A stretch of 64,000 nt of DNA, from NCBI GenBank assembly GCA_040384485.1, contig JAZKJH010000003.1, forward strand, positions 71,556-135,555. Reading direction: 5' to 3'. This stretch comes from Patescibacteria group bacterium (GTDB lineage Bacteria > Patescibacteriota > Minisyncoccia > Phycocordibacterales > DATDWN01). The position numbers were made by a program, and so were the translations under genes. Under the pieces are notes generated by a model. That model made no database searches and was not told the origin of the DNA. It was given only the letters and a program-made list of their open reading frames with translations. This document shows positions 1,479 through 55,900 of this stretch, in pieces (position 1 is the first letter of the stretch; each line of letters opens with the position of its first letter).

Positions 1479-1716
1479 TTTGGATTGGAAGCAAAGTGTG
1501 GGACACTTTGCGTGTGGATTCGAAAGACGGAGCGGTTTACAGTCTCAACAGAGACTGTCGCGAGTCAGGGTCGTGGAATTTTTCTTGTGACGACAAGAAA
1601 AATCTCCCTGACCGAATCTCACTCCATCTTTGAGCAACTAAATTATCCCTGACCGCATCTCACTTAATCCGTACTCCTCTTTCTCATCCCCACCACTCCT
1701 GTAATAAAATCTTGTT

Positions 1717-2154
1717 TTGTACGTTATAATAAAACATATGAATAAAAATATTATATCAACCATTATTGTGGTTTTAATTATTATAGGTGGAGTTTATTGG
1801 TTTAACTCAAGCAAAAAAGTAGTAGATACAACAAATGAATCCCCTGTTGTTAATTCCGGTGAGAACACTAGTCAACCTGGGGCAACGATGCCAGGTTTAC
1901 CGGCGGAACCTGCTGCTACTGAGGCCAGAAAAGATCTTGCTTTAAAACTCAATACTGATGAAAACAATATTCTAATTATGCAGGTTGTGGAAGTTACATG
2001 GAACGACGGATGTTTAGGCCTGGGCAGAGCTGACGAAGGATGTATGCAAGCACTTGTTCCAGGATTCAAGGTTGAGTTATTTGCAAAAGGAAAACTCTAT
2101 ATATACAGAACAGACAAAACTGGTTCTAGCTTAAGAGCTGAAACCGCGATATAG
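1717..2154 (+). CDS. Hypothetical membrane-anchored/secreted protein
   Basis: 145 aa (alternative start MNKNI at 1738); N-terminal hydrophobic helix IISTIIVVLIIIGGVYW, Pro/Ala-rich linker, Cys-containing C-terminal domain; followed by a strong terminator. Confidence 0.5.
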   Translation: MYVIIKHMNKNIISTIIVVLIIIGGVYWFNSSKKVVDTTNESPVVNSGENTSQPGATMPGLPAEPAATEARKDLALKLNTDENNILIMQVVEVTWNDGCLGLGRADEGCMQALVPGFKVELFAKGKLYIYRTDKTGSSLRAETAI

Positions 2155-2168
2155 AAAATCAAATAAAA

Positions 2169-2243
2169 ACCACTCAACAAATTGTTGAGTGGTTTTTTAT
2201 ATAAAATAAAACCCCTGCGTCACAGTTAAGTGCGCAGAGGTTG
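2169..2243. terminator. Back-to-back terminators between convergent genes
   Basis: ccactcaacaaattgttgagtgg + T-run terminates the plus gene. cccctgcgtcac..gtgcgcagagg hairpin followed by a T-run on the minus strand terminates the Ubl operon. Confidence 0.6.
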
Positions 2244-2263
2244 TTGAAAAAACAAAGAACTAG

Positions 2264-2515
2264 TTAGTTACCTCGAACCTTGGAGAAGACCAGGATCTGG
2301 TCGCCATCCTCCATGCTGCCGGTGAGGCTGCTGATCTTGGTGCCGTTAACTCGGACATCGAGGGAATCGCCTCGACCCGAACCACTGAGTCCGGCCTTTT
2401 CGAGACCGTCCTGGTAGGTACTTCCGGCGCTCATGGTGTAAGACGTGATCTTTCCACCAGGGAATGCGCCGATTTTCACAGTGATTGCCTTTTCAGTTGT
2501 ACGCGGTGCTGCCAT
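2264..2515 (-). CDS. Ubiquitin-like beta-grasp protein (ThiS/MoaD/Ub-like), C-terminus ...KVRGN
   Basis: 83 aa from ATG at 2515, preceded by AAGGAGAAGAG SD. The track ORF extends to a TTG at 2569, which I consider less likely. Sequence MAAPRTTEKAITVKIGAFPGG...DGDQILVFSKVRGN has beta-grasp-like spacing; last residues Gly-Asn. Higher GC than the flanking genome. Confidence 0.6.
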   Translation of the reverse strand: MAAPRTTEKAITVKIGAFPGGKITSYTMSAGSTYQDGLEKAGLSGSGRGDSLDVRVNGTKISSLTGSMEDGDQILVFSKVRGN

Positions 2516-2572
2516 TACTCTCTTCTCCTTGGGTTGACGGACATTCGTTAACGTACTGCATTCGAACAATGA

Positions 2573-3271
2573 CTAGAAGTTAGAGGTGTTAACCATCATG
2601 GGCTGAAGTGAAAAAATAATTTCATTCTCCACTTCATCCACAACAGCTTTGCCAACCTTTAACTCTTCTTGACCTTGATGCCAGCGAATTAGCTGCCAAA
2701 CAGCAAGACCTGAAACCACTTCAGCAGTGGACCCAACACTAATGCTGGTTCCACATGCGGAGACCTCGGCCACATCATCGGAATAAAGAGTTTCCTCCCA
2801 TCCCCTGACTTGTCCTGGGTTTGATGGATTCAGAGTATAAATACGTCCACTGTTCTTCCCCATGCGAGTCTCAATCATGAGCTTCACATAGGTTTTGTAT
2901 TTTAGTCCCGTCTTCCAGATCTCCTGGCGAGATGCCATGGTATCGGTCAGAAGGAAAACTACGTCACCAAGACGTTGTGATCCGTCTACTTTTTCTGGAT
3001 GAACAGAAACTTCTGTTCCAGTCTGCTCCCTGATGATATTCATCAAGGCATCGACCTTGGACATGCCGACATGGTTGTTGCCAAAGATTTGATTCGGCAC
3101 GTTGTGTGCCTCAACCTTGTCATAATCCCAAATATGAATATTCGGGATACCAAGCTTGGCGAGTCCCAAAGCGATACGCGAACCGGTCGCTCCAACTCCC
3201 ACTACATCAACCCTTTGATCCCCAAATGTCTCTGGGGAAAAAACTTCGATGTGTCGCATTGTGTCTAGCAA
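2573..3271 (-). CDS. E1-like adenylyltransferase (ThiF/MoeB/E1 superfamily), short form
   Basis: Rossmann VDVVGVGATGSRIALGLAKLG; E1 signature DYDKVEAHNVPNQ; candidate catalytic Cys in EVSACGTSISVG. TTG start with GGAGG SD 5-6 nt upstream; stop is 4 nt from the Ubl ORF. Confidence 0.7.
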   Translation of the reverse strand: MLDTMRHIEVFSPETFGDQRVDVVGVGATGSRIALGLAKLGIPNIHIWDYDKVEAHNVPNQIFGNNHVGMSKVDALMNIIREQTGTEVSVHPEKVDGSQRLGDVVFLLTDTMASRQEIWKTGLKYKTYVKLMIETRMGKNSGRIYTLNPSNPGQVRGWEETLYSDDVAEVSACGTSISVGSTAEVVSGLAVWQLIRWHQGQEELKVGKAVVDEVENEIIFSLQPMMVNTSNF

Positions 3272-3283
3272 TTAACCCTCCTT

Positions 3284-4045
3284 TTATTGTCGTGGTCCAA
3301 AGACACCAGTAAAAAACCATGGTTTGTGCTTGTACTTGTAACCTTTGCCGATCTTCATCGGCATTGGGCGCAAATACTTCACCTTAGCCTGCATTTCAGC
3401 TAGAAGATCTTGCTTCAGTTGTTGATAAACTGCGTTACTGACCCTGGGTCCTTTGACTTTCCACGGCAACTTATCGAACTGAACATTGTTCTTCCAGTCA
3501 TAGAGACTGAAGCTAACTTCTCCTCTGCGGTTAAAAATACCGCGAAGGAAAAAATCAGATCCAAAATCCCGAAACGTATTCATGGTCATATCATCCTGAC
3601 CAGATGGTTCAGTACCACCTGTACCGTGTGAATGACCCCAAAAACGAATGTTGTTAAAAATATCTTCGCCGTTTGGACGTGTGAGCACGTCTTGCATGAC
3701 ACTTGCCATGCTATCCGTATTCAGTTCTGTTTGACCATAGTTAACACTCTGGTCAAACAAAAAGATATCGTCAACAAGAACGTGTTTTCCTAATTTTTTG
3801 GCAGTGCCAAGCCATCCAACTTCCATCTCGATGGCACTGATGATTATGTAAATCTTCAGAATGGCCAGATGACTCAAACTAACAACAGGTATCACGTCGG
3901 GAAGACGCAACATCCTTGCTGAAGTAGGAAACTGTCTCGGCAAAAGAAAACTGTCGGCTTGGGTCCTTGAAATATCCCAACCTGGACCTTGGTCTTCCTT
4001 AGCTATCTCGTCTTTTTCCTCTAGTTCTGGAGCGGCATGATCCAC
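3284..4045 (-). CDS. JAB/JAMM (MPN+) metalloprotease-like deubiquitinase/desulfurase candidate with ~110-aa N-terminal extension
   Basis: EMEVGW ... FWGHSHGTGGTEPSGQD fits E-x(n)-HxHx7Sx2D exactly. GTG start with AAGGAG SD; its stop overlaps the SD of the E1 gene (translational coupling). Confidence 0.7.
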   Translation of the reverse strand: MDHAAPELEEKDEIAKEDQGPGWDISRTQADSFLLPRQFPTSARMLRLPDVIPVVSLSHLAILKIYIIISAIEMEVGWLGTAKKLGKHVLVDDIFLFDQSVNYGQTELNTDSMASVMQDVLTRPNGEDIFNNIRFWGHSHGTGGTEPSGQDDMTMNTFRDFGSDFFLRGIFNRRGEVSFSLYDWKNNVQFDKLPWKVKGPRVSNAVYQQLKQDLLAEMQAKVKYLRPMPMKIGKGYKYKHKPWFFTGVFGPRQ

Positions 4046-4165
4046 AGACTAACTCCTTGTTTTGATGTAAATGTTCACTTCCTACAAAACAGACTACATA
4101 ACTATGCCTATTCTGTCAAGTCCAATTTTGGAGCATGTCGGTAACCCTTGTTATATTTATTAATA

Positions 4166-4208
4166 TGTGTTATGGTATAAAAGGAAAGTCACCCGTGGGT
4201 TAACCCAC
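4166..4208 (+). promoter_or_regulatory. Promoter-like TGGTATAAA (-10) followed by perfect 14-bp palindrome GTGGGTTAACCCAC (candidate operator) just upstream of the RBS
   Basis: tatggtataaaagg (extended -10-like). GTGGGTTAACCCAC at 4195-4208 is its own reverse complement. AAGGAG RBS and ATG at 4221. Confidence 0.45.
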
Positions 4209-4220
4209 AAGGAGCACTGA

Positions 4221-4787
4221 ATGAACACTGCGACGATTGAAATCCCCCGATATGGAAGTCTCAAACTGCACTATGCGACTATGTGCATAGTGGTGTTGGG
4301 CACAATGTTTCAAGTGGGACATTTTGCTGAACATGCTGTGCAGTTTGGAATGTGGCTATTCAGTGACAGGTCAATGCCCTGGATGTCAACGTGGGCAATG
4401 TATCTCGTCCACCAGATTGGTCATTGGGCTGTGCCCGATGCATCTGGTGCAAGGCAGATGGCTGTCGGGATGGAACTGCTTCATCTCGTCGGCAATGGTA
4501 TCTTCTTGGTGACCATTGCTGCTTTTTACAAACATTCACCAACCAAACTTGTACGACAGGCATTTTACGTTGAGGGTTTTCATCTAATTGAGCACTTGTT
4601 GCTCACCTTCTCTGTAATCTATCTGGGAAAACCAATCGGGTTCAGTACTCTATTTGGTAACAGTTCACTTGTTTGGGACAAAGAAGGAGTTGTTGGTTAC
4701 AGGGTGTTTTGGCACTTCGCCATGAATCTCGTACCTTCAATTCTCATCATGAAAGCCATGATGAACATGAGGTCAAAAACTCAATAA
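4221..4787 (+). CDS. Hypothetical His/Trp-rich polytopic membrane protein
   Basis: 188 aa, ~5 hydrophobic helices, repeated HxxxH / H-W motifs (GHFAEHAVQFGMW, HQIGHWAVP, HLIEHLLL); strong terminator downstream (ggtccatgctttcgcatggacc + T-run). Confidence 0.55.
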   Translation: MNTATIEIPRYGSLKLHYATMCIVVLGTMFQVGHFAEHAVQFGMWLFSDRSMPWMSTWAMYLVHQIGHWAVPDASGARQMAVGMELLHLVGNGIFLVTIAAFYKHSPTKLVRQAFYVEGFHLIEHLLLTFSVIYLGKPIGFSTLFGNSSLVWDKEGVVGYRVFWHFAMNLVPSILIMKAMMNMRSKTQ

Positions 4788-4807
4788 AGTTTTCCTGTTT
4801 CAATACT

Positions 4808-4876
4808 CGGTCCATGCTTTCGCATGGACCGATTTTTTTATAAAAAAACAACCCCGTTTATAAGCGGGGTTGGTAA
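4808..4876. terminator. Two face-to-face rho-independent terminators
   Basis: ggtccatgc-tttc-gcatggacc + Ts (plus strand). caaccccg-tttataa-gcggggttg with A-run upstream (serves the minus strand 579-aa gene). Confidence 0.7.
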
Positions 4877-4884
4877 GCCTAATC

Positions 4885-6624
4885 TTAACGGGCGCTGCGT
4901 AACTTAGTTACTATTGCTTCGCCAGTTTGTCGGCTATCAAAACTTCTCAAAAAATCCAAAGACATAGTCACAACAGTCTCTAGTTCAAGTCCGCCCAATA
5001 ACTCTGGAAAGGTGGACGTAAGTTGACCTAATGGCAACTCCCCACTTTCTCCACGCAATTGTGGTGACTGAAACACGCTACCGTCTGCAAACCATATCGG
5101 TAGAAGGTTTTTGAACGTGTTAACTCCGGTGGAGAAATTATACTCGAGTGTAAAATCTCCAATCCAGTAAGAAAGACCGGTAGCAACGTCAGTTGCCTTC
5201 AGTTTTTTTGTCTCAACCTTCAAGACGTCGTCCTTGATTGAAACTTTCTTAACACCATCAAGCTTTTGAACCTCAGCAACTCGTTTCTGGATTAGAGTTG
5301 TGATGCTGTAAACCAGAACTGGAGGCTTTCCTCTTCCAACCAGCTGTTCTTTGGTCTCGAGGTGTTCTCCAAGAGTCTCTGCAAGAGTTCCTTTAAGGAT
5401 AGCCGCCTGGTCAGGTCTTACTCCCTTTCTGGCCTCCAAAAGATCTCTCTCGATTTTAACCCTATTACTTCCGTGGGTTTCTTTAAAGACGCTGATGAAT
5501 CCTGCTTTCACCGTCCTGTCCAAAGCATCCTTCTTTACTGGATACACCATTCTCTTTTCAACAACTGGAAACAGTTCCAGAATTTTCTGATAAGAAATGT
5601 TCTCATTAACTGACTCTACTGCCTTAAGTGAAAAGAGTAGAGCAGCTTCGAACTCAAAATCTCTCAAAAGAGTGAGGATGCCTCTACCCTCTCCATGGCA
5701 CCACTCTCCACCCAAACGGTCTACGTGTGGATGTCCATACTTACCAGAATACCCACCATATTCATGATATGGTCGGCGTGACTTGTTGACAAAGACCGCC
5801 TGACCCCCGTCCCCAAAAGTAAGTTTGATTTCGAATTCACCAAACTCATGAATCTTCTTGGTTTGCGAGTGTTCACAATACATTGGGTGTGTGGTAATTA
5901 ACAGTTGAGTCCCGTCAACTCTGATGTCTTTCACTTCGGGGATTTTGTAGAGGTTATCGATGACTCGATCCGACTCTAATGTATCACCCCCAAGTTTTTT
6001 AAGTTGTGCCTCTAAGGCAACAGCTTGAGTGACTGAACCCACCATTTTTTTTCGATGCACCACCACCAAAGACTTCAAGGGTTGAAGAATCTTGGTGTTT
6101 GGAGCAACGAAGTTACCTTCATACATCTCTTCCAAAGTGGGAAATGCTCCCCACCCAAGAAGTATTAACGTCTCACGCAAAATCTTTCTGTAAATATCGA
6201 GACGTGCCTCAGTAACTGTTCCACCAACAACAGGAAACAGCACATACAACTCATTCTTGTTGATGAGCTCTGCGACTGCATATCCACTTGTCGGATCAAC
6301 AATCACCATGCCTTTTCCAGAAGGTTCAAACAAATAGCCTAACTCGATGTTCGCCTGTCCAGCTACTGATAAACCCCACATCTTTGAGGGAATATCCTGA
6401 AATCCGGCTTCGTTACGAGCCCTGCTATAAAGATGGATTATGAAAGAGGACCTGTCTCTCCTGCCCGGTGGATTATGTTCACCCTGGACATCCCACAGAT
6501 ACAAATCCTCAACTCCATTAACTTCAAACGGTCGACCGACAGTACTTCTGGTGACTTCCAGAAACCTATCCTTCGTCTCGTACCCATGTCCCCAATTGTG
6601 TGGTCTGATATTCATCCCCAACAC
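4885..6624 (-). CDS. Large hypothetical protein with candidate E2/UBC-like active-site motif (YGHPHVDRLGGEWCHGEG)
   Basis: 579 aa. The central segment has HP[NH]-V-D-x6-C spacing similar to the UBC HPN-loop/catalytic Cys (HPNIDSNGSICLDIL). No other recognisable domain from sequence alone. Confidence 0.4.
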   Translation of the reverse strand: MLGMNIRPHNWGHGYETKDRFLEVTRSTVGRPFEVNGVEDLYLWDVQGEHNPPGRRDRSSFIIHLYSRARNEAGFQDIPSKMWGLSVAGQANIELGYLFEPSGKGMVIVDPTSGYAVAELINKNELYVLFPVVGGTVTEARLDIYRKILRETLILLGWGAFPTLEEMYEGNFVAPNTKILQPLKSLVVVHRKKMVGSVTQAVALEAQLKKLGGDTLESDRVIDNLYKIPEVKDIRVDGTQLLITTHPMYCEHSQTKKIHEFGEFEIKLTFGDGGQAVFVNKSRRPYHEYGGYSGKYGHPHVDRLGGEWCHGEGRGILTLLRDFEFEAALLFSLKAVESVNENISYQKILELFPVVEKRMVYPVKKDALDRTVKAGFISVFKETHGSNRVKIERDLLEARKGVRPDQAAILKGTLAETLGEHLETKEQLVGRGKPPVLVYSITTLIQKRVAEVQKLDGVKKVSIKDDVLKVETKKLKATDVATGLSYWIGDFTLEYNFSTGVNTFKNLLPIWFADGSVFQSPQLRGESGELPLGQLTSTFPELLGGLELETVVTMSLDFLRSFDSRQTGEAIVTKLRSAR

Positions 6625-6704
6625 TGTCTCCTTTTGATAAGATTACAAGGTTCGAATCCTTCAATACTAAATCATGTACTGAATAAAAAGTCAAATCCAT
6701 GGAC

Positions 6705-6740
6705 TTGACAAAGCACCACTTTTAGTATTCTATTATTAGG
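6705..6740 (+). promoter_or_regulatory. Sigma70-like promoter for the FAD-oxidoreductase gene
   Basis: TTGACA-n17-TTCTAT/TATTAT upstream of AAAAGGAG RBS and ATG at 6811. Confidence 0.4.
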
Positions 6741-6810
6741 CAATACCCTAGGTAAGACTCGGGTACACAAGTTCTTTGAAAATCACACTGCCAAAAGGAG
6801 ACTCTCGTCA

Positions 6811-8343
6811 ATGAACACGAACCGTCAAGCAACTGCACCCGTGATAGTGAAAACTTTCGCTCCGCAAGGTCTACAGTTCTTGGACTTGGGCGCCTTGCGT
6901 GGATATATGGAGGCCAAGGACTATGACTTGGATGTGGTCTCAAAGTTTGCAGAACGTGGAGTATTTGCTCCCCTGTTTGCAGACTTGGTACTCAGAACAG
7001 GCGGCTTGGATAACGAACTGTTGAATCAGTTCGGCCAAGCACTACAGCATGTTCCCCCAACAAAACTGGAATCATACACAGGTTCTGACACCCAGAACAG
7101 TCGTATCGATTCAGCGATTGCCAACAGTGGAATCGCTCGTGATGTAAAGCGGTATGGTGAAGGGTCAGCAAGTTTCTTTGAAACGAAGTCTGTTATTCCG
7201 ACATCAATCAGAAACGTTCCTATTGCCATCGTTGGCTATGGAGCAGCTGGTATTATCGCTGGATACGCCCTGAGCAAATTGGGGTTCCAAAGAATCACAG
7301 TGTATGAAAAAGGGAAAAATCTCGGAATTTGGAGCTACAAGAACGTTTTTGAACTTTCTCGTAACAATCCTTTGAGATTGCAATTTTTCAACAGTGTTCT
7401 TGATCCGGCACCAGGAGGAGGAATCGAGGTTCGAGACTTCCTATCCAGGCTGGCAATTCTGAACACAGTCGACGCAAGGGTTGTTAAGATCCAGCCAGGC
7501 AAAATGAAGCACAAGCTGGTCTTCTCCGACAAAAGCACGGCCGAATATCCAATCGTGGTTAATGCGGTCGGCTTGGGAAAACCAAGACCAGTTTCTGACC
7601 CCGCACGAATGGTTACGGAAACTGGACAGGCACATGCTGGTGCCAGATGGCAACAGCAATTGAGAGTGGAGGATGTTGCTGGACAACAGATTGTTTTGAT
7701 CGGCTTAGGAAATTCAACAGCCGAAATGCTCCAGCAAATCCACACCCTCATCGACGACGGCTACTATGTCGACTACCGTGTGCTTACACATTACCCAGAA
7801 GAAGCTGTCTACAATCCCTCAACTTACGTTGAGGAAGATGGGCGAACATTCCGGGTGTTTCGAGACACATCAAAACCAAATCTCGTTGACTACCAAGGAG
7901 ATTTGGCACGTTCCAGATATGATTACTTTCGTGCACTACACGAAGGTAAAATCATTTCGGGAGTTAAACGCTGGGAAGTAAAAACGCCAGGAGTCATGGC
8001 AATTTACGGGAAAAACAGAAAAAATCTCGGTAAGTTGCCGTTCGACAAAGTAATGACTCTTATTGGTTATCATCAAGGAAAGGACGAGATGCAAAATCTC
8101 GGATGTTCCTATGATGAAAAGCAGGGCAGTGGAGTGTTCGACTATGATGGCGAAGTCGCCGGCATGCCAGGAAACTCCGATCCAAAGAAACGCCTTCACA
8201 AGGGATACTTTGGGTTTGGTTCTATCCTGGAAACACCCCTTAACCCGAATGCGATCGTAATTCCTGGAATGCTTCACCGCATCGGGGACCTGGCATTCAG
8301 TGTGATTATGCGAGCAGCAGAATTTCGAAATAAAGATCTGTAG
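6811..8343 (+). CDS. FAD/NAD(P)-binding oxidoreductase (flavin monooxygenase / pyridine-nucleotide-disulfide oxidoreductase-like)
   Basis: 510 aa; first dinucleotide-binding motif IAIVGYGAAGIIAGYAL, second VLIGLGNSTAEM; GC-richer than the host genes. Confidence 0.6.
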   Translation: MNTNRQATAPVIVKTFAPQGLQFLDLGALRGYMEAKDYDLDVVSKFAERGVFAPLFADLVLRTGGLDNELLNQFGQALQHVPPTKLESYTGSDTQNSRIDSAIANSGIARDVKRYGEGSASFFETKSVIPTSIRNVPIAIVGYGAAGIIAGYALSKLGFQRITVYEKGKNLGIWSYKNVFELSRNNPLRLQFFNSVLDPAPGGGIEVRDFLSRLAILNTVDARVVKIQPGKMKHKLVFSDKSTAEYPIVVNAVGLGKPRPVSDPARMVTETGQAHAGARWQQQLRVEDVAGQQIVLIGLGNSTAEMLQQIHTLIDDGYYVDYRVLTHYPEEAVYNPSTYVEEDGRTFRVFRDTSKPNLVDYQGDLARSRYDYFRALHEGKIISGVKRWEVKTPGVMAIYGKNRKNLGKLPFDKVMTLIGYHQGKDEMQNLGCSYDEKQGSGVFDYDGEVAGMPGNSDPKKRLHKGYFGFGSILETPLNPNAIVIPGMLHRIGDLAFSVIMRAAEFRNKDL

Positions 8344-8462
8344 TTTGTGATAACAGATTACCAACCAAATCTTCAGCAAGTCCGTTAAGGCATTGTTGAA
8401 GATTTTTTCTTTACTTATAACCTACTCTACTTTTATATTGTTAAGTTTAGTATAATTAATTT

Positions 8463-8958: not shown

Positions 8959-9030
8959 GCTCCCGTAGTTTAATGGATAGAATGTTGGCCTGCGAAGCTG
9001 GCGATCCAGGTTCGATTCCTGGCGGGAGCA
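8959..9030 (+). tRNA. tRNA, 72 nt, anticodon loop CTGCGAA (reads as Arg-GCG); anticodon stem has 3 G-U pairs, so it is possibly a variant/pseudo-tRNA
   Basis: Acceptor GCTCCCG/CGGGAGC; perfect T-arm CCAGG-TTCGATT-CCTGG; D-arm GTTT-AATGGATA-GAAT. The anticodon stem TTGGC/GCTGG is mostly wobble pairs. Confidence 0.55.
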
Positions 9031-9076
9031 CAAATAAAAAAACCACTAACAGTGGTTTTTTTATTTGTGCTCCCGC
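9022..9076. repeat. Perfect 26-bp inverted repeat (55 bp with 3-nt loop) that includes the last 9 nt of the tRNA; functions at least as a terminator
   Basis: GCGGGAGCACAAATAAAAAAACCACT-aac-AGTGGTTTTTTTATTTGTGCTCCCGC, arms exactly complementary. Confidence 0.8.
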
Positions 9077-9149: not shown

Positions 9150-9345
9150 ACGGAACAAGTGTACCGTTCATGTAATGAAAGATTCCGGCGGCAAATATCC
9201 CTGACCACAGATGTCTTCATGTACCATTCACATAATGAAAAATTCCTGTTGGTGAAATTTTTTCCAAGAAGTGAGATATCCTGGCAACAAATATCCCTGA
9301 CCACAGATGCCTGCATGTACCATTTATGTAACGAAATGTCCCCAA
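9150..9345. repeat. Tandem direct repeat, unit ~93 bp, ~2.5 copies
   Basis: caaatatccctgaccacagatg(t/c)ct(t/g)catgtaccatt.a..taa.gaaa occurs at ~9193 and ~9286, with a partial third copy at ~9160. Confidence 0.7.
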
Positions 9346-31898: not shown

Positions 31899-32040
31899 TT
31901 TTTTATAAATTATCTATTATTGATTGCCTAATTATATAGAAAATACACCCTATATTCAATTGTGAACAAGGCAAAAAACCCATATTTTAGGCACTACTTT
32001 TCAAAACATAGAGTTTGTGCTATAATATAGGCTGTTATGT

Positions 32041-32324
32041 TGGATAAGTGCTCTGCATAATATTTATATTTTGTAGGGAGGAAAGTCCGAACATCAAGTT
32101 TAGAGCAATCTGAACAGGGGTAGCGGGTAACGCCCGTCGGGAGTAATCCTAGAGGTGCGAGCAGTGACGCTGGAGGCGAAAGCTGAAGGATTCCGCAAGG
32201 AATAATTTCATAGAAATATGAAAGTGAAACGGCAAAATCCTTACTTTGATGCAAGGCCGTGTCCGAGCAATCGGAAGTGCCGCTCGAGGTTGTAGGTAAC
32301 TACAATCCCAGATAAATACTTATC
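32041..32324 (+). ncRNA. rnpB: RNase P RNA (bacterial type A, reduced)
   Basis: Conserved GGAGGAAAGUCCGAACA (P4), AGGGGUAGCGGGUAACGCCCG, GUGAAACGGCAAAAUCC. The P1 pairing of GGAUAAGUG with ACUUAUC sets approximate ends. Overlapping antisense ORF 31994-32254 is spurious. Confidence 0.7.
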
Positions 32325-32499
32325 GTTTAATATCAATTAGATATTAAATACAGAATTCGGCTTATAAACATAACCAAAATGAAAAGACACACCTAAACAG
32401 TGTGTTTTTTCTTAACCGATATCATTTTATTGCAACCATTGAACCTTCACCTACCTAGTGCTACCATTATATATAGAACGTACACAGTAGGAGGTCGTA

Positions 32500-33236
32500 T
32501 GGAGAGAAAAGACTTGTTCGGCTCAGTATCGACTGATAGGCCGAAAAGCAAAGCCAGGAGTGCTGTTGCTTTTTCTGTTGCCGTGCTGGTCAACTTTGTT
32601 GCTGTCGCAACACTGGTGATCAGTCCCCTTCTTGCTACAAACGAGCTGCCTCTGATTCACAGAGACAGCCCTTATGTAATGAGAGCAGACATTGTTCTGC
32701 CAACAGAACCGTCGGCACCCAAGAAAACTGAAAGTGTGCCGAAGGACCCAAATGCACCAAATCCAAAAGGTGCACCGCCAGAGTCTCCGGACAAAATATC
32801 TCCAGAACCTCCGAGGGTTCCCGAGTGGACACCACCAACAGCACCATGCCCGGGTTGTCTTCCGCCAACCGGTGGACCGGAAGGACCGCCAACACTTGGC
32901 CCCCCACCGCCACCAACTCCTCCGAAACCTGAACCCCCACCGCCACCAACAAAGCCGGTGAGAATTAGTTCCTCGGAGATGCCGAGACAGGTTGTGCGTG
33001 TAAACCCAACTTACCCAACAATCGCACAGTCAGCGAGAGTTGAAGGTGTTGTGATCATTGAAGCGATCATCGACAGATTTGGGAACGTAGTCAACGCCAA
33101 CATCTTGCGGGGACAAGCACTACTCAACGAAGCGGCTCTCTCTGCCGTTCGTCAATGGAAATATGAACCTCACAAACTCAATGGTGAACCAGTCCCTATC
33201 ATTATGACAGTGACAGTCACCTTCAGTTTGAAGTAG
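32500..33236 (+). CDS. TonB C-terminal-domain protein with TM anchor and proline-rich linker
   Basis: AGGAGG SD before ATG 32500; TM AVAFSVAVLVNFVAVATLVI; Pro-rich PPTLGPPPPPTPPKPEPPPPP; C-terminal TonB-like PTYPTIAQSARVEGVVIIEAIIDRFGNVVNANILRGQALLNEAALSAVRQWKYEP. GC-rich segment. Confidence 0.6.
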
Positions 33237-36200: not shown

Positions 36201-39200
36201 AGAAGTCCCGTTATTTGTTGTTTGACCCAAAGCTGTGTATGCACCAGTTCCCGTACTTTGGTTAAGTATGTTTATAGAAGTTACAGCGTCTTGTGTTTTT
36301 GCAACTTGCAAAAGTTGTGTTGGTCCTGATGTTCCTACTCCCACACGACCTGTATTGTCGATAGTAAAATAATCCGAAGTTCCTAATGTTCCACTTCCTG
36401 AAATTTTCAACTTATCACTATCAGAATTATCTATACCCATTGAATATTGTTGCCCACCAGTTAGGTACCATGAAATACTAGTGTCCCCTGTACTGTTTTG
36501 TTCCAACATTGCCAATGGGTTTGTTCCGGAAGTATTTTTATAAACTGTTAGTGGCCACTGTGGACTTTCTGTTCCAATGCCAACCTCACCATCTCCATCA
36601 ATAGTAAGTCTTGCTGTTCCTGCAGTTGCGAAAGCAATTGAAGTTGCAGCAGGTCTGTACATACCAGCTGATGCGTCATTTGAAAAACCGTAAGCAACAC
36701 TTGAAGCAGAACCATCTGACGTTCTTAGTGCGCCCGCAACACCTATTTGTCCAGAACCTACTTTGTAAAAACCAGTTGAAGTTTGCGAACTAAATGCTAT
36801 GGAGGGTGTTCCAACTAAACCATCTGCCACATAAACTGCAGTTGAAGAAGCTGTTCCTTGTACATCTAGTTTTGTTTGAGGATTAGTTGTTCCAATACCT
36901 ACATTTCCATTTGTACCCTCAATAGTTAAGTCAGGATATGTGTTTGATGTGCCTAAATTTAAACTAGTTGAACCTGGAGAACGCACTGTTCCACTACCAA
37001 GAAACAGTCCGTTTACTGACAAAGCATCGTTAGCAGAATCCCAAGTTAGTTGAGTTGTGTCTGTGGTTAGAGCACCCGCACTGTTATACAAAACTAGTTG
37101 ACCTGTATTAGCACCAAGAGCTGGAAGAGTCGCCCTAATCCCTCCGTTTACATCAAGGGTTGTGCTTGGACTGGTTGTTCCAAGCCCCACAAAACCACTA
37201 CTTCCCAATATACTTAGAGCGGAAGTTGTGGTCGTTGCAGTACCTGCAACAGTTGTTGTTGCTAAATAGAAGTTTCCTCCTGCATTTCTCATTACCCATT
37301 GTGAAATACCTCCTCCTGCAGAGAGAGCTAGTTGTGGTGCTGTAGCTGAGGTTGGGTTAAGTATCCATTGTGGGGTTGTTGTTCCGATACCAACGTTTCC
37401 TGTTGAACTAATAACCATTCTTTCGTTGGTAGGTAATGTTGCCACGTTTCCTATAGTGCTTCCAGCGAAAAATCTAATATTTGCAGTTGACGCAGTTATA
37501 AGATCTTCTGAGCCCCCGTTATTAACTGCTATAGTAGCCCGAAGGCCGCCACTTGGTTCCATAAGTGCTATCTGAGCATTTACACCACCGTTGATACCTT
37601 GAATCTCTAACTTTCTTGCGGTAGGTACTCTTCCAATACCTAACCATGCAGAAGATGCATCTACAACTAAAGCATTTGTACTCCCTGCTTCACCGACTCT
37701 AAAGTCTCCGTCAATATCAAGAAGATATGAAGGTGTACTGGTTCCAATACCCACATTACCAGCGTTTGTTATTCTCATCTTTTCAGTAGTCACGTCAGAT
37801 GTGTATGATCCCCCAAATGCACCTGCTGTGTAAAAAGACAACCCTGTCTCACCAGAAGCACCTTCACTTATACCAGACAATTTTGCACGAACACCTGAAG
37901 CAGCAAACGTTTGACCAGATGAAGCATCACCACCAAAAAATTGGACAGACCCCAGAACATCATCAGCAACAATTGCAGAAAAAACATTACTTAGTCTAAG
38001 TATTGATGTGTTTGAAGTTGCAGAAGAAACTTCAAGTTTTACTTGAGGGGTGCTGGTTCCAACTCCAACATTACCTTGAACAAGTAGTCCGTTTGAAGGA
38101 GCAGCTGTCGTATCATATCCAGCACCAATTGTAGCTCCTCCGGAAACAGAAAGACGAGAACCTGGTAGCAGCTCACCTACCCCCAAAGAACCATCGTCCC
38201 TAAGAGCAAGAAGGGTTGTCTGATCAGAGTTCTCAACATACATCGCATATGAAGCATTTGTATTGCCTCCACCTCTAGTAATAAACTTATATCCGGTAAG
38301 CGGGACACTTCCTATACCAACACTACCAGATGCATCGATGATAAATGGTGTGGAATCCGGGGAACTCGAGTCCTCAACAACAAAAGAAGGTGCTGACCCT
38401 GTGTTCGTTACCGAGAGTTTGCCCCACGGTGTTGTTGTTGCTATTCCAACATTTCCTGAAGAGCTAACAACTAACCTATAAGCATCACTAACATGTCCTA
38501 AACCTATGCTTTGCCCATCAGCTGCTTGCATTATTATTGGGTAGTTTGGTGCGTAAATTTGGAAAGCGGAAATATCTCCGCGAGATTGCATTACTGCTTG
38601 TTGAGTTGACCCGTTGTAAAAGGAAACTCCTGAATAACCCCCTGAAGAGCCGTAAAATCTTGAGGTGTCGGAAACAGATGTGTCTCCGATATATGCTAAA
38701 CCATTAACTTGAAGCTTTGCCACTGGACTTGCAGTCCCAATACCAACATTGTTGGTTGAATAGTCATATACCAAACCTGATGTTTCGATTGCTAACCCCC
38801 CAGCGATTGTTGATGTCGCATTTGTGGATGTGGCATTGAAGTTTCCAAAAGTTGGTGTTGAGGTTGCGACTAATGCACCAGATGAATTGGTAGAGAGTAA
38901 TGAGTTGATTGCTGTGCCCGATAAAGTAATAGCCGGAGTAACCACACTTGTTCCTACATACAACGTTCTTGGTCTAGTTGCTCCTGAGGCACCGATATCG
39001 AGAGTATTGTCTGTTGCAGCAAGAAAATGTCCCGTAGCATTTATTCTCCATTTTTGAGCACTGCCCGTCATAAACAGCAAATCTCCTGTGCTGTGTTGTC
39101 CGTATATTTCTTGAGCATTTGCAAATCTAATAGATGAACTATCACTATCAGTTCGCAACTCTCCTGTTCGGTCTCCAGCTCCGGTGCTCAACCTCCTCCA

Positions 39201-42200
39201 CTCCATAACAACACCGGAGCTTTCTCGATCTATTTGCAAAATCTGATCTTCAGTAGCAACACCTGCAGCACCAGATATGTGGGTCCGGTAACTTGGAGTC
39301 GTTCCAATACCCACATTGGCAGATGTTGTCATTCTTAATACTTCAGCAAGCGTGCCCGCTCCATTTGAAGTTTTAAAAATTAAATCTGACTTATTGTCAT
39401 TGCTTGCATAATTGTTTGCATAAATTCCACCTAGCGAGGTTGCCCCTGACCCATAAGTAAGCAAAGCTTCTTCTTGTGGGTTTCCGTTAGTTACAATTAG
39501 CCTTCTTATTTCCCCTGATACGGCTAATTTTTGAAGAGGGTTGGTTGTTCCGATACCCAGGTTCCCAGCTGTAGATAATGTCATTTTTGTAAGACCGTCT
39601 CCAGTCAAGAAACCTAAGTTGCTAGCTCCAGTAAAATCATATAACCCAGTGCCCACCATCCAGTCATTTGTTCCGGCAGTTTGGAATTGAACAGCAGAAG
39701 AGTTCCCAGAAGAGCTGCTTCTGTTTAACAAGGCGAACGCGCCGCCGTTATCCGCAGTAGCATTTAGAGTTACATTTCCATTAGTTGCCTGGAAACGAGC
39801 CTGGTTACTTATACCAGACATATGAAACTGTGCTGCTGGAGTCGCGGTGCCCAACCCAACTCTTCCGCTATTCTGCTGAACCACAAACTGACTTGTTCCT
39901 ACAGCCAGTCCTCCTGTTGCGATAGTTGACGTTGCTGTTGTCGATGTTGCATTGAAATTTCCAAATGTTGGAGTTGACGTTGCCACTATCGCACCTGATG
40001 AGTTTGTGGAAAGCAGTGAGTTGATTGCTGTGCCGGATAAAGTCAGAGACGGAGTTGAAATAGATGTTGTTGCCGTAAATATATTTGCAATAACAGTTCC
40101 ACCGTCAAAAAATCCTGAACCGGCAACTGATAGTTTATAACCTGGAGTTGTTGAGCCGATTCCAACATTTCCCGCAGAACTAAGGAACATTCCTCCTGCC
40201 CCACCACTACCATTTCCATAGAAAGCCAGGCCTCCGCCTCCACCAATATTAGTGATCTGTCCATCAATAGTCCCAGATCTCTTGATCAAAATTCCAGGAA
40301 AAGAACCACTGACTGAATCCAGGACAAGAGTCGCATTTGTTCCGGAAACGTAAAGATTATTTTGGCTTACGTTTTGAAAAGCCATTGTTCCTGACCCATC
40401 AGCAACTGAGAATTTTGTGTAAGGTGATGTAGTTCCTACTCCGACATTACCAGTTGCAGATGTTAGGTTAAGTCCACCACCTGAAGTGCTTATGGTTGGA
40501 GCGGAACCGTTTGATCCAGCAAGTGTAAGATAGTTTGTAACACCAGCAGTACTCAAAACACGAACTTGTTCCACACCACCAGCTCTCATATGAATACCTA
40601 AAGAAGAAGGACCGCTATCAAGATAAAGCTCTCCGGTAGGACTAACGGCCAAATACCCGTCAGGGTTTGTGATGTTTGCAGCTGCGCCAGATCCCTGAAT
40701 AATGTTAGAGTTTCCAAAAATAGTCCAACTCCCAGCCGTTAGGGTTTTTCCACCCGTTATTGAAACACTACCCCCACTTACTGTTCCCGTTAAAGCAATA
40801 TTACCGTCAACAGAAAACTTTTCGTAAGGACTTGTAGTTCCAACTCCAACATTTCCTCCAGCCAAAACTGTCAATCTGTTTAAACCATTTGTCTGCAAGT
40901 TCAAATCAAAAAAACCTGTGTGTCCAAAGTTGGCCGCAGTTGGTCCTGTCACCAAGTACGAAGAACCTGAACCCGAAAGAGCCACATTTCCATCAGCAAC
41001 TTGTAGTTTATAAAACGGATTACTTGTCCCAATACCAACATTCCCACTATTCTGTTGCACCACAAACTGACTTGTTCCAACTGCGAGACCTCCTGTTGAA
41101 ATAGTTGAAGTAGCAGTAGTAGATGTCGCATTAAAGTTTCCGAATGTAGGAGTTGAGGTTGCAACTATTGCTCCTGATGAATTTGTAGAAAGTAGTGAAT
41201 TAATTGATGTGCCAGAAAGTGAAATGGATGGAGTAACAACAGAGGTTCCGAAGTATCCTGTTCTCCATGTATTACCTACTGCTCCTATGTCTGCATTATT
41301 ATCTGTAGTGGGAACAATATTTATTCCATTTCCAAGAGTTAGATTTCCAGTTGAGAGTCTCATTCCCAAAGTTCCATTTACTGCCCATCTCAATGCACTT
41401 GATTCTAGATACATTCCGTATCCAGAGTTGCTTGCAAAAGTATATGATGGTGTTGTCACAGAACCAACACTTGCTGTAATTGTAGAAGTTGCAGTAAGAT
41501 TACTTGCAACAACTGTTCCTCCGTCAAAATATCCACTACCAGCAACTGATAGTTTATAACCAGGAGTTGTTGAACCTACACCGACATTTCCGCCGCTCGT
41601 TATCCTCAATCTTTCTGAGTACGTGCCCGCATCTCTAGTTGCGAATGAAAGCTCAGCACTAACAGCACTTGGGGTATGGCTTGTAAAAATAGCGTTAATA
41701 CTAGCTCCAGTCCCAAGAACTCCATTCGTATCCATTGTCAGAAACCTATTTTGAGCAAAATTATTATTTGTGGTATCAGTGTTTATTAAATTCGATGACG
41801 TGTCGTTAGAAAGTCCGCTAACGGTGTATGTAGAATCAGAACTACCCGAAACAACGAGTTTTGCACCTGGAGCTGTCGTCCCAATTCCCACACGGCCCGA
41901 TGAAGTCACGTTGAAAGTGGACCCCCCAATTGATGCCACAGAAGAGAAAAGATTGGTGGATGAAGCTGTTGTTGAAAATAGATTTGTTGTGGTTGCTGAT
42001 ACTCCAGTTGAATTAACAAAGCTAAAGTTTTGTAGAGTTGTAGAACCTGTTAGCAACAAGTTTCCAAAATTTCCTGTTCCTGTTGTTGTTATGTTTCCTG
42101 ATCCGGCGTTGATAGTGTTGTTGTTTGTAACAATTCCATTTGTCCAAGTTCCGGCAATTTCTAGCGCAGTTGTCCCTGTTCCTGTGTTACTTATATACAA

Positions 42201-52900: not shown

Positions 52901-55900
52901 GTTGTTCCGATACCAATCAACCCATTTGAAACCGGAGTAGAAGACATGCTACTTCCGTTATATATCCCTGTTGCATAAAGAACATTTCCTATGTTTAACT
53001 GCCTGCTTCCTGCCACAACAGGAACATCAACATTTGAACCGATAATTATATTGTTTGCGCCGGTGGTGTTTGAGTAACCAGACCTATATCCTAAAAAAAT
53101 ATTGTAATCAGACCCAGTTTGAACACTGTATCCGGATGCAGTTCCCATATATATTCCACCTTGATTTGTGTAATTGGCTCCATTGCCTGCTGCAGCTGAC
53201 ACTCCTATAGCAATATTTGATGTAGATTGTGTGTTTAATCCTAGTGACCCTTGGCCTATACCGATACTGTCTGATCCTGCAATGTTAGTGTTTAAGGAAA
53301 ACAAACCAATTGCGATGTTGGAATTTCCAGTTGTAACACCGAGGGTGCTGGGACCTATTGCAACGTTGTATGCACCGTTTGCTGATACCATAGAACTGTA
53401 TCCAATAGCGACATTCTCTCCGCCGCTTGTATTGCCTGCTAGTGCATTTACTCCCATAGATACGTTTCTACCTCCACTAACATTACTTATCAACGAACGG
53501 TATCCGACAGCTGTGTTATCGCTCGCCCCACTTGTAGAACCTCCTCCATATAGTCCAGCTTGATAACCAACAAAAGTGTTCCCTGTGGCTGCAGAGACAT
53601 TGTTTTTGCCCGCTTGATATCCCAGCTTTGTACTGAAAGTGGTGTTGCTAAAATCTATCAAATCGTAGACACTAATTAAGTTGTTTGGGGTTGTGGTTCC
53701 AATACCAACCCTACCCCCATTCGTCACTACAAAATTCGTCGCTGTAGACGAACCTATAGCAAAAGCCGGACCTGTGATTCCGTTTGGATTTATTGAGAGT
53801 TGGGCCCATGGAGTTGTGGTTCCAAACCCTGTAAAGCCTGTTAGGGATTTGGTTGTAAATACGGGGTTTGCAACATTCAGCAAAACAGATGCTGTGGTTG
53901 TGTTGTTGTTTGTGGTCACTATATCCAACTTTCCATTTCCGTCAAAATCCCCTAAAGCAACATAGAATGGGCCGTCACCTGTCGCATAATCAACTTTTGT
54001 AGCAAATGTTCCGTTTCCGTTGTTTATCAAAACCGAAACTGTATCTGAGCCATGGTTTGTTGAAACAATATCTACAAAACCATCTCCGTTTACGTCACCC
54101 AGGGCTATCCCAACACTTCCTGCGTTTGTATAGTCTACCCTAGCGGCAAATGTTCCGTTTCCGTTGTTTATAAAAACCGACACCCCACCACTTCGCATTA
54201 CCACAATATCCGCCTTTCCATCACCACTCAAATCAGCCGCTTTTACACTGTATTGCTCTCCTGGTACAGCGTATTCCACATCTGCTCCAAAAGTTCCATC
54301 GCCGTTATTCATCATTACTGCCATAGTAGCAGTGGTCCAGTCGTCAGTGGCAATATCCACGTATCCGTCTCCATTAAAATCTGCTGCTGCAAGACCTTGT
54401 GGTCTACCGGTAGCGGTGGTGTACTTTACTCTTGTTGCTAGAGTTCCATTCCCATTGTTCATATACACAGACACACCTGTGTCAAAATAACTTGCACTTG
54501 CCACATCAAGTTTTCCGTCTGCATTAAAGTCTGCTAAAGATAAGTTTTCTTCATAGGCTCCGCCTCCGTAATTAACTCTCGTAGCAAATGTTCCGTTGCC
54601 ATTGTTTAAATAAATAGCAACTCCGCTAGCACCACCTAGGGTAACTACCATATCCAACTTACCATCACCATTCATGTCCCCCAATGCCACAGCCGTTGGA
54701 ACACTACCTGTTGCTGCATAATCAACTTTTGTGGCGAATGTTCCGTTGCCATTGTTTATAAAAACTGACACAGTCTCACTCCCTCTGTTAACCACCACCA
54801 CATCATCTTTCCCATCACCGTTAACATCACCTGTTGTTACACCTAATGGACTGGTCCCGGTTGTGTAGTCAACTTTTGTGGCGAATGTTCCGCCTGAAGT
54901 TAGACTTATCTCCCCTGCTTTTATTGAGCCGATATTTACCAAGTTTCCAGATGAGGTTATTCTTTGAGAAATCGGCAACATTTCTGTCCCCCCTGTTCCT
55001 AACCCGCCAGATAGATTTAAATAACTATTAAACCCAACAGGTCCTGGAGAAATTGTTGAGCCGAAGGCTTTTGAAAGTATTATAGATTCTGCACCAACCC
55101 CTCCTCCAGCCACAGTAAGTTTTGATCTTGGGGTTGTTGTTCCTACGCCAATATTTCCAGTCGTGCCTTTTATGGTTAAACGTTCAGTCCCTTCTGTTTT
55201 AAACGCGTAGTCTGGACCGATTCCAAAACCAAGGGGTGGTGTGTCAAATGCACTCCAAACTCTTATTGTGTTTGTTGGAAAATCGAATTGTGTTAATCCG
55301 TCCTGCCTAATCTCACCTGGGGTACCGTCGAAATTTATTTTCCCAGCAACAACACCTCCTTTACCTAGAGTGAAAACTGCGGAGGAAGGATTAAAACTAA
55401 ATATAGTATCGTCTGATGAGTTTAGTATTGAAGCTGTGCCCTTTACTGTAAGTAGCCCTGTTGGGTTTACGGTTCCAATTCCAACATTTCCAGAGCTTGT
55501 TACAGAAAGGAAGGTTGATGCTGTGGAACCTATTGCAAAAGCTGGATCAGTAAGTCCTGTAGTATCTACTGAAAATTTTGCCCATGGGGTTGTTGTTCCA
55601 ACACCAACCTTTCCTGAAGTTGGATTCAAAACAACATTTCCTGCACTACCCTCTATAGAGATTCTAGTTGTTCCATTTGTGCCTATAGCTATTTGTTGTC
55701 CGGCTGAGTGGTCACTGATAGTAAAGTTATCAAAACCCAACCTTTCGTTTCTAACAAGAAATCCGTTGTTTGCATTGTTGTATCCAACTGACCAACCACT
55801 AGTAGCTCCTGTAAAAAATCTAACTTTTGCGTCATCTGTCTCAAGTGTTCTATTTATATATAAATTATTTTTAATTCCTACTGTTCCCTCTACAGCGAGT

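Follow-up and report, generated by a model that had tools for sequence, protein, structure and literature searches.

A candidate ubiquitin-like conjugation cassette on a putatively acquired island of a Patescibacteria genome

A 64,000 nt window of a Patescibacteria genome (assembly GCA_040384485.1, contig JAZKJH010000003.1), to which all coordinates and strands given here refer, carries what is probably a complete, compact ubiquitin-like protein (Ubl) conjugation cascade, comprised of a SAMP2-like Ubl, a minimal ThiF-type E1, an E2-like protein and an Rpn11-like JAMM peptidase (JAB), on a horizontally acquired island beside a tRNA-Ser gene. All four parts are present and linked, each has recognisable homologs, and their catalytic residues are conserved; from these parts we infer the chemistry of each step, where the cut falls, which target is tagged and what the system does biologically. 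An earlier, sequence-only reading of the locus had recognised three minus-strand genes, for the JAB (3284-4045), E1 (2573-3271) and Ubl (2264-2515), as a candidate conjugation operon, and both the ORF (open reading frame) list and the sequence bear out all three. That reading missed the gene for the E2-like protein, however, such that the unit is a cassette of four components, and of six genes in this clade; the conjugation that it proposed is supported more strongly once this enzyme is included. The features of the four components are as follows.

2264..2515, minus strand: Ubl, an 83 aa SAMP2/ThiS-like beta-grasp protein with the C-terminus FSKVRGN; own Shine-Dalgarno (SD) sequence AAGGAG and ATG start
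2573..3271, minus strand: minimal E1, 232 aa, with one ThiF-type adenylation domain; residues 25-30 form the Gly loop; Cys173 at nt 2753-2755
3284..4045, minus strand: JAMM/MPN+ metallopeptidase (JAB), 253 aa; E75 at nt 3821-3823; H138-S-H140...S148..D151 at nt 3593-3634; N-terminal extension of ~60 aa
4885..6624, minus strand: E2-like protein ('BIG'), 579 aa; own terminator at 4849-4872
6115..6489, minus strand: N-terminal module of BIG (residues 46-170), a family-specific domain found with jackhmmer
5554..6030, minus strand: UBC/E2-like domain 1 of BIG (residues 199-357), intact; H298-P-H300 at nt 5725-5733; candidate catalytic Cys309 at nt 5698-5700
4888..5319, minus strand: UBC-like domain 2 of BIG (residues 436-579), with Cys replaced by Pro (SPQL...GELPLGQ); a UEV/RWD-like, apparently inactive copy

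In the neighbourhoods of E1 homologs, a large unannotated protein is encoded directly upstream of JAB-E1-Ubl, and the 579 aa ORF of the window is its ortholog, with 33% identity over the full length to the protein of locus L001 (blastp, 4e-93) and 47% to that of L009. Neither BIG nor eight relatives had any match in Pfam, NCBIfam, PHROGs or PADLOC, and a word-indexed homolog search with BIG retrieved only four proteins; an exhaustive profile search (E<=1e-3) places 1,725 clusters at 50% identity in the family of its E2-like core. The loci scanned with iterated profiles numbered 151, made up of 11 context look-ups, 60 species-representative genomes, 79 viral contigs and the window itself, and in 168 of their ORFs there is a core domain of ~155 aa with the consensus [A/H]-P-H-V-x3-G-x2-C-x-G, its P, G and C being kept in 151/157, 143/157 and 133/157 domains, respectively. 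Among 35 Cys-bearing core domains there is no variation at T47, G64, H102 and C111; the residue after the Cys is not conserved.

Compared with the PDB, the core profile had E2 enzymes as 24 of its 25 best matches, with individual E-values that are weak (0.15-1), and the consensus 'mnaPHVdseGkaClG' was laid over 'MFHPNVYADGSICLD', in register with the HPN motif of UBE2A (HPNV..G.ICL). The UBE2A residue aligned with the core Cys is one that we take to be its catalytic Cys. When aligned by hhalign with five canonical E2s, whose sequences were entered by hand, the core reached a probability of 95.3% (E=2.2e-8) over 116 columns, covering E2 residues 6-123. Both the UBC fold and the HPN-type motif followed by a catalytic Cys are found in BIG (H298-P-H300...C309), which is, as judged from these profiles, an E2-like enzyme in which one UBC domain is intact and the other lacks the Cys.

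From its N-terminus, BIG consists of a family-specific module, a helical linker, the intact UBC domain, a second helical linker and the Cys-less UBC domain. The last of these is a second match to the core domain (9.9e-25), in which P521, G528, L530, P531, G533 and Q534 are invariant and which as a whole is well conserved in the clade. Pairs of intact and variant UBC domains, either fused or in adjacent genes, recur often in cellular loci; in phage loci a single intact domain is the usual state. The N-terminal module, ~120 aa long and present in one to four copies per protein, was found by jackhmmer across the 151 loci in 84 ORFs, which are exclusively members of the BIG family; it has the signature F.I.lW..WG..PSG.G..i.D..G..vAEliG..LYi, lacks a Pfam match and also occurs in loci L061, L064, L010 and L066. 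A structure model of full-length BIG, based on a four-sequence alignment, had a predicted local distance difference test score (pLDDT) of 52 and a predicted template-modelling score (pTM) of 0.37, gave no Foldseek match at E<=0.001 and was discarded.

The window E1 matches Pfam ThiF (PF00899) with 72 bits (cutoff 28) as a single domain over residues 17-206, and a homolog search with it gave 711 matches, the family having lengths of 225-245 aa. The GxGxxG loop, adenylation signature and candidate Cys that had been pointed out earlier hold up not only in this match but also in 22 homologs, in which the Gly loop, D49, N57, N60, Q61, K72, D110, R115, an ETRMG block and Cys173 are invariant. Cys173 is the sole cysteine of the window E1, which has no CxxC pairs, and where the E1 profile aligns over its full length with ThiF (PDB, 2e-8) it pairs with the Cys of the ThiF NCRTAGVVGP segment, at the crossover-loop position. 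The enzyme accordingly has the Rossmann adenylation domain, Gly loop, conserved Asp, Lys and Arg and crossover-loop Cys of the E1/ThiF/MoeB superfamily.

Within that superfamily the window E1 is, by sequence comparison, near no named family. The PDB matches of its profile run from ThiF through MccB (3e-8), PaaA, the unnamed ThiF-type chain 9egc, BubCD, TcdA and UBA6/UBA5 to MoeB, with Cap2 far lower and no Bil E1 chain named at E<=1e-3. The NCBIfam equivalog models are far under their cutoffs for ThiF (59.9 vs 159) and MoeB (35 vs 266), as is the model for SAMP-activating E1 (25.9 vs 450), and PADLOC Cap2 (E1-E2) models match at residues 16-96 only; phrog_15670 also matches the window E1. A search of plasmids with the window E1 gave zero matches, and membership of the PRTRC group was rejected on that basis and on a score of 39.2 bits with TIGR03736 PRTRC_ThiF (cutoff 144.75).

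The JAB contains E75 (in EMEVGW) followed by H138-S-H140-x7-S148-x2-D151, an exact instance of the JAMM/MPN+ catalytic motif E...HxHx7Sx2D, as the sequence-only reading had stated. Alignment of 27 homologs, down to 21% identity, found all metal ligands kept, with E75, H138, S139, H140, S148 and D151 invariant. As a single sequence the protein is sub-threshold for Pfam Prok-JAB (15.6 bits, cutoff 25) and has zero matches in the PDB; the family profile has 26, every one of them a JAMM isopeptidase, of which Rpn11 is the best (1.2e-4) and the others include an archaeal Rpn11-like protein, PSMD14, CSN5 and BRCC36. There is no bacterial JAB among the 26, and BubCD, the N-terminal JAB domain of which is present in the PDB copy, was not matched.

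The Ubl likewise had no family match in a single-sequence search. In general, single-sequence searches of the PDB, Pfam, NCBIfam, PHROGs and PADLOC with the JAB, Ubl and BIG gave either nothing or matches under threshold, and it was the family profiles that were informative. A profile of 39 units matched SAMP2, an archaeal Ubl that undergoes conjugation, over its whole length in the PDB (5lda_B, 2e-7; 2l32, 4.5e-6), followed by MoaD, SAMP1, ThiS and TtuB, and individual units have Pfam matches to ThiS (11/39) or SAMP2 (5/39), together 16/39. By this profile homology the beta-grasp fold is established, answering the check that had been set for the 83 aa protein. Orthologs sit 3' of E1 in loci L001, L002, L008 and L009.

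The C-terminal Gly-Gly of ThiS, MoaD and SAMP proteins is absent from the window Ubl, which ends G-N, and 111 of 146 unique Ubl units end phi-[K/R]-G-N. Translation stops exactly at GN in 43 of 87 terminal units, the remainder having short variable tails (N, K, L, EEV, HS or SSSY), and the internal junctions of tandem Ubls are GN followed directly by x; diverged viral Ubls end G-A, S-N, A-N or GG plus one residue. The end had been described earlier as a Gly followed by one extra residue, for which there are precedents in the capped-Gly ends of BilA and Rub1/Ubi4, although the terminal Asn is conserved rather than a variable extra. Type II BilA ends G97-A98, the Ala blocking conjugation until BilC removes the cap (PMC10557695), and yeast Rub1 and Ubi4 each bear a single Asn cap (PMC12146660). 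By analogy, the leading reading of Gly-Asn is that JAB would cut after the Gly and that the Asn is a removable cap, which the G-A ends of diverged Ubls fit.

The cassette is widely shared. JAB and E1 occur together in 147 of the 151 loci and all four components in 100, recurrent gene orders including BIG-JAB-E1-Ubl and Ubl-BIG-BIG-JAB-E1, and genes for di- and tri-Ubls recur among related loci; gene order is kept across the candidate phyla radiation (CPR), Melainabacteria and phages. The 60 genome loci divide into 30 from Melainabacteria/Obscuribacterales/Cyanobacteriota, 20 from CPR/Patescibacteria and 10 from others, so the expectation that such a module would be unusual in a CPR-like reduced genome was not borne out. 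Viral contigs yielded 132 relatives, of which 79 loci were kept. A large terminase gene lies 5 kb from the cassette in L075 (phrog_675, 3.7e-50), and Sak4, DnaB and primase genes lie beside it in L104, which indicates that these contigs are real phages. Cultured phages have only distant E1s (26-34% identity), adjoined by a JAB in Flavobacterium FpV4-type phages and on their own in Xanthomonas/Erwinia jumbo phages; with profiles at E<0.01, both groups came out negative for Ubl and E2-like genes, and the jumbo phages for a JAB as well. Two JAB-E1 sets or two full cassettes lie within 10 kb on some viral contigs (L075, L077, L080, L074 and L089), and some phage contigs hold a single-Ubl gene plus a tandem-Ubl gene.

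In the mechanism proposed for this cascade, the Ubl would be made as a capped pro-form ending Gly-Asn or, in relatives, as Gly-Asn with a short tail or as a tandem di- or tri-Ubl. JAB would cleave after the Gly, freeing the units and exposing a reactive C-terminus; the tandem poly-Ubls of relatives imply that a processing peptidase is needed. The E1 would adenylate the Ubl C-terminus, presumably as a homodimer in the manner of ThiF and MoeB, and then load the Ubl on Cys173, from where it would be handed to Cys309 of the intact UBC domain in the 579 aa protein. The Cys-less UBC domain and N-terminal module may bind the Ubl or the target, in place of a UEV partner or an E3, and the Ubl would finally be moved onto a lysine of the target. 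JAB may also be able to reverse the mark by deconjugation, and the accessory genes that vary between clades may act as output or target modules.

By analogy, the biological role is most likely to be in phage-host or mobile-element conflict. Likeness to Bil, CBASS and Bub points, along with the island context, to conflict between phage and host; the cassette may nevertheless serve the phage, given its abundance among the replication genes of phage genomes. The antiphage role favoured earlier keeps the support of this analogy, but about half of the relatives found are phage-encoded and host defence is not the sole plausible role. Other observations weigh against the cascade as proposed: no E3 or target could be identified; PADLOC has no defence model that matches the JAB, Ubl or E2-like protein, and the adjacent genes include none known from defence; the window E2-like gene is a separate transcription unit, with an opposite-strand gene between it and the JAB operon; and the simple cap model leaves the conserved Asn unexplained, the SAMP2 alignment placing it at the last residue of SAMP2. 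For every family member, moreover, the cascade is known from sequence alone. The cassette is described in no paper found, and none links Patescibacteria with these components, subscription journals having been outside the search.

On sequence comparison the cascade is most likely Bil-like in its working, having the same four activities, yet a member of neither Bil nor Bub, as it lacks what defines Bil, Bub and Cap2/Cap3. Like Bil (BilABCD; operon types 6d and 6c of Iyer et al. 2006), it has a Ubl, E2, JAMM peptidase and E1 as four separate components, and Cys conserved in both E1 and E2, from which a thioester relay would be predicted. In BilA (G97-A98) the JAMM peptidase takes off a cap that follows the reactive Gly, a pattern with which the G-N of the window Ubl and the G-A of diverged members would be compatible; both systems lack an E3 gene, the E2 being proposed to pick the target, and are sporadic and linked to mobile elements (PMC10557695; PMC11601596). 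By contrast, BilD is a pseudo-dimer of ~500 aa in which an inactive adenylation, an active adenylation and a Cys domain (IAD-AAD-CYS) are combined with a structural zinc site (PMC10557695), whereas the window E1 is a single domain of 232 aa without an insertion in the crossover loop. The cap residue here is a conserved Asn, no PADLOC model matches the JAB, Ubl or E2, and the hosts are CPR, Melainabacteria and phages, whereas Bil is found in Proteobacteria and Firmicutes. BilB is presumably a small stand-alone E2. Bil E2s have the Cys and a conserved downstream His without the HPN histidine (PMC1779556, PMC10557695); the window protein, at 579 aa, differs in keeping H/A-P-H and in having a second, Cys-less UBC domain and a family-specific N-terminal module.

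Bub systems (6E/DUF6527) resemble the cassette in having a JAMM-processed Ubl with one to three tandem beta-grasp domains and a homodimeric, single-domain E1 without a Cys domain, and RWD-like inactive UBC domains have been noted in their operons (PMC1779556; PMC11601596). However, Bub systems have JAB-E1 or E2-E1 fusions, whereas the window JAB, E1 and E2-like protein are encoded by three separate genes, and they lack the catalytic Cys, forming oxyesters through Tyr and Ser, whereas here both Cys are invariant. A BubE protease of the DUF6527 family (PF20137), which Bub always has, was found by Pfam neither among eight proteins of the island and its flanks nor in the inspected neighbourhoods of relatives. 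CBASS Cap2/Cap3 differs in that an E2-E1 fusion acts on a CD-NTase without a Ubl gene, whereas here there is a Ubl and no nucleotidyltransferase in the island. The Bil/Bub-like membership proposed earlier thus failed, as neither the defining E1 and E2 architectures of Bil nor any of the three Bub features is present, and it is highly unlikely that the cassette is a diverged member of Type I/II Bil, Type I/II Bub or Type II CBASS Cap2/Cap3. The component list shared with Bil, the match of PADLOC Cap2 models to the E1 and the presence of BubCD and Cap2 among the E1-profile matches would favour such membership, but the Cap2 matches are confined to E1 residues 16-96 and no Bil E1 chain was among the PDB matches; the E1, with neither an inactive adenylation domain nor an inserted Cys domain, is unlike BilD; and E2-like proteins of 450-700 aa with their own N-terminal module and a retained HPN-type P-H motif, like the invariant Cys residues, set the family apart.

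Parts of the cascade also recall archaeal and eukaryotic systems. Known SAMPs end in Gly-Gly and double as sulfur carriers, and to our knowledge sampylation proceeds without an E2. The archaeal SAMP2/UbaA/HvJAMM1 system shares with the cassette a homologous Ubl (2e-7), a small single-domain E1 of the ThiF/MoeB type and a JAMM peptidase that processes or reverses the mark, whereas here an E2-like enzyme is tightly linked, the end is Gly-Asn and the SAMP-activating E1 model falls well short of its cutoff. As in eukaryotic Ubc13-Mms2, one intact and one Cys-less UBC domain form a pair, fused in the window and in two genes in Melainabacteria. The nearest solved relatives of the JAB are Rpn11 and CSN5, and a double-ring Clp/Hsp100 AAA+ gene lies directly 3' of the E1 in 25 genome loci, as in the logic of the proteasome. 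These E2-UEV and proteasome comparisons are a resemblance of parts, read from genes alone, and the window has no AAA+ partner.

A biosynthetic, sulfur-carrier system of the ThiS/ThiF, MoaD/MoeB, CysO/Mec+ or QbsCDE type, in which the Ubl would be adenylated for thiocarboxylation and the JAB would trim the carrier or release the product, is very improbable. It would suit the generic ThiF-family E1, the best full-length PDB match of which is ThiF, the matches of the Ubl profile to MoaD, ThiS and TtuB, the flavoenzyme linked to the cassette in this clade and the JAB, E1 and Ubl trios known from CysO and Qbs pathways (PMC1779556). The earlier preference for conjugation over such a role is nonetheless strengthened: sulfur transfer has no use for the conserved E2-like partner and its invariant Cys, tandem poly-Ubls and wide spread in phages are unlike a cofactor pathway, and the Ubl has no C-terminal Gly-Gly. 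Moreover, the ThiF, MoeB and MoeZ equivalogs score far under their cutoffs, and the inspected neighbourhoods contain no rhodanese, cysteine desulfurase, ThiG/H, MoaE, siderophore or other sulfur or cofactor genes. Unlikely, though less so, is that the Asn is kept and chemically used, such that the mature Ubl ends Gly-Asn, the JAB removes tails after the Asn and the E1, like MccB acting on MccA, adenylates the carboxylate of the Asn, a succinimide then leading to imide-based conjugation or a nucleotidylated product. The conservation of the Asn in 111/146 units, the exact stop at GN in 43/87 terminal units and the short, variable tails after it are the pattern expected if GN is the mature end, and the SAMP2 alignment lays IKG-N over the last residues of the chain. 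MccB, which ranks second among the PDB matches of the E1 profile (3e-8), is a ThiF-type adenylating enzyme whose substrate has an obligatory C-terminal Asn, and its chemistry on that Asn through a succinimide is established (PMC12250964). However, the match is limited to the shared Rossmann part, MccB aligning from its residue 107 onward to E1 residues 11-90, with the E1 Gly loop from residue 25, and the E1 lacks the N-terminal peptide-clamp domain. The substrate here is a folded beta-grasp protein of 70-83 aa, rather than a short peptide, and is accompanied by an E2 and a JAB. Ends of G-A, S-N, A-N or GG plus one residue suit a removable cap better than Asn-specific chemistry, there are direct precedents for one-residue Ala or Asn caps taken off by a peptidase, and the invariant Cys residues of E1 and E2 favour an ordinary thioester relay.

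It is possible, if less probable than the reading proposed above, that the cassette is chiefly a phage tool, the biochemistry being the same: proteins of host or phage would be modified by a phage Ubl cascade to take over the host, counter its defences or control replication, and the Patescibacteria copy may be cargo of an integrated or decayed mobile element, with a function in superinfection exclusion or none for the host. The 132 viral relatives, with 79 loci kept, the genuine phage genes in L075 and L104, the distant JAB-E1 pairs and E1s of cultured phages, the match of the E1 to phrog_15670, the two cassettes of some phage loci and the position of the island beside a tRNA-Ser gene with an att-like scar all point in this direction. 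Against it, there is no integrase or phage structural gene in or beside the window island, and cellular copies are intact, with all catalytic residues kept, among housekeeping genes; the pairs of intact and variant UBC domains and accessory genes, which are rare in phage loci, suggest a host-adapted function.

Around the four components, the locus includes the following further features.

2165..2197, minus strand: intrinsic terminator closing the JAB-E1-Ubl operon, a 15 bp stem followed by a T run
4046..4220, no strand assigned: intergenic region from which the JAB operon and the DUF6008 gene diverge, presumably containing promoters
4221..4787, plus strand: DUF6008 integral-membrane protein, 188 aa; Pfam DUF6008 102 bits; own terminator at 4807-4832
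6811..8343, plus strand: flavin/NAD(P)-binding protein with two dinucleotide domains, similar to flavin-containing monooxygenases (FMO-like), 510 aa; Pfam NAD_binding_8 above cutoff

No consensus sigma-70 match was reported in 4046-4220. The JAB starts with GTG, 7 nt 3' of AAGGAG, and the E1 with TTG, 5 nt 3' of an AAGGAGG that overlaps the JAB stop codon. Of the translational coupling claimed earlier, this overlap stands, but the E1 stop abuts only a mechanical, TTG-initiated ORF of 101 aa; the true Ubl start is the ATG at 2515, 57 nt downstream, which has its own SD sequence and gives 83 aa, and Ubl orthologs begin MATPRTT or MSAKPRVT, resembling the ATG form. The TTG start of the E1 at 3271 is backed by the N-termini of homologs (MLDxxRH) as well as SD spacing, and the public annotation, which has 228 aa from an internal ATG, is on this evidence probably four codons short (window 3259-3271).

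The island has a GC content of 0.45-0.47 from ~2000 to 8000, against ~0.37 on either side. The block that had been called GC-richer than the host is so, but spans ~1700-8400 and includes three further conserved genes. It is flanked by tRNA-Ser and tRNA-Arg (8959-9031) genes. The former, tRNA-Ser(tga), occupies 1363-1450, and the 16 nt sequence CGAATCTCACTCCATC at 1613-1628, 165 nt downstream of the tRNA, exactly duplicates its 3' end (1432-1447), with a degenerate second copy at ~1654-1668; this duplicate is an att-like integration scar at the left edge of the GC-rich island. Related islands at differing sites in other CPR genomes are consistent with horizontal acquisition. A motif, AAxTATCCCTGACC, has only four copies in the 64 kb, two left of the island (1600-1668) and two right of tRNA-Arg (9169-9336), the right-hand pair lying inside two 72 nt direct repeats with a spacing of 96 nt. 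The motif copies were considered as the ends of the island and are given as an observation only; 0.76 copies are expected by chance, and four were reached in 2 of 100 shuffles. Elsewhere in the window, the stretches 32001-33000, 37001-41000 and 53001-55000 have a GC content of 0.44-0.47 against a background of 0.36-0.41, and may represent additional islands or RNA genes.

Among the nearest Patescibacteria relatives the cassette comprises six genes, for the FMO-like flavoprotein, DUF6008 protein, E2-like protein, JAB, E1 and Ubl, all on one strand in L008; in the window the same six are rearranged, as separate units that have terminators of their own. Both the FMO-like gene and the DUF6008 gene are clade-specific accessory genes of the cassette: orthologs of the former (54-68% identical) adjoin it in L001, L008, L009, L014 and L015, and orthologs of the latter (49-51% identical) lie within it in L008, L009 and L013. 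Nothing on DUF6008 was found in the searched literature. The FMO-like protein has weak Pfam matches to Pyr_redox_2/3 and weak, FMO-like PDB matches at the level of the Rossmann fold. Its Rossmann region (window 6811-8343; L001 3739-5292) also matches the nucleotide-binding region of the E1 (blastp, 29% over 73 aa, 2.8e-4), probably through generic Rossmann similarity.

A different accessory gene characterises Melainabacteria-type loci. In 25 of the 60 genome loci, a ClpB/ClpC-like double-AAA+ gene lies 20-230 nt 3' of the E1 on the same strand; it encodes 750-890 aa with two Walker A motifs, 38% identical to a Patescibacteria ClpB and with a shorter middle region. Examples are found at L005 8757-11084 and L023 9763-12102, among loci L017-L058 that are mostly of Melainabacteria/Obscuribacterales type, and the same partner was looked for in the window and not found there. 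Together with the Rpn11-like JAB, this gene suggests a tag-and-unfold pathway in Melainabacteria-type loci. A Melainabacteria-type cassette with an adjacent AAA+ gene also occurs in L025 (CALRJJ020000337.1), labelled as a Flavobacterium psychrophilum metagenome-assembled genome; its E1 is 59% identical to that of the window (E=8e-95), the same as those of Obscuribacterales loci L023 and L027, and the Flavobacterium label is likely to be a binning error.

Few ubiquitination-like pathways have been characterised in bacteria, namely Type II CBASS, Bil and Bub, and the candidate cascade described here would add a further large and currently unannotated family, in which the E1s at present carry the label 'thiamine biosynthesis protein ThiF' and the other three proteins (E2, JAB and Ubl) are called 'hypothetical'. 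It would be the most compact complete version so far, with a 232 aa E1 containing one Cys and an E2 into which a UEV-like partner and a new N-terminal module are built, in hosts (CPR/Patescibacteria, Melainabacteria and phages) for which such systems are unreported in the papers that could be searched. The conserved Gly-Asn end poses a sharp biochemical question. Should the Asn be the reactive residue, with the mature Ubl ending Gly-Asn, adenylated on the Asn by the E1 in the manner of MccB, and a C-terminal cyclic imide as acyl donor or end product, which we consider a long shot, this would be the first ubiquitin-like modifier conjugated via non-glycine, imide-based chemistry, spread in phages, CPR bacteria and Melainabacteria. 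The AAA+ gene 3' of the E1 in Melainabacteria, alongside an Rpn11-like JAB, makes a bacterial tag-and-unfold pathway directly testable. If phages do run a Ubl cascade of their own, ubiquitin-like tagging would be found on both sides of the conflict between phage and host.

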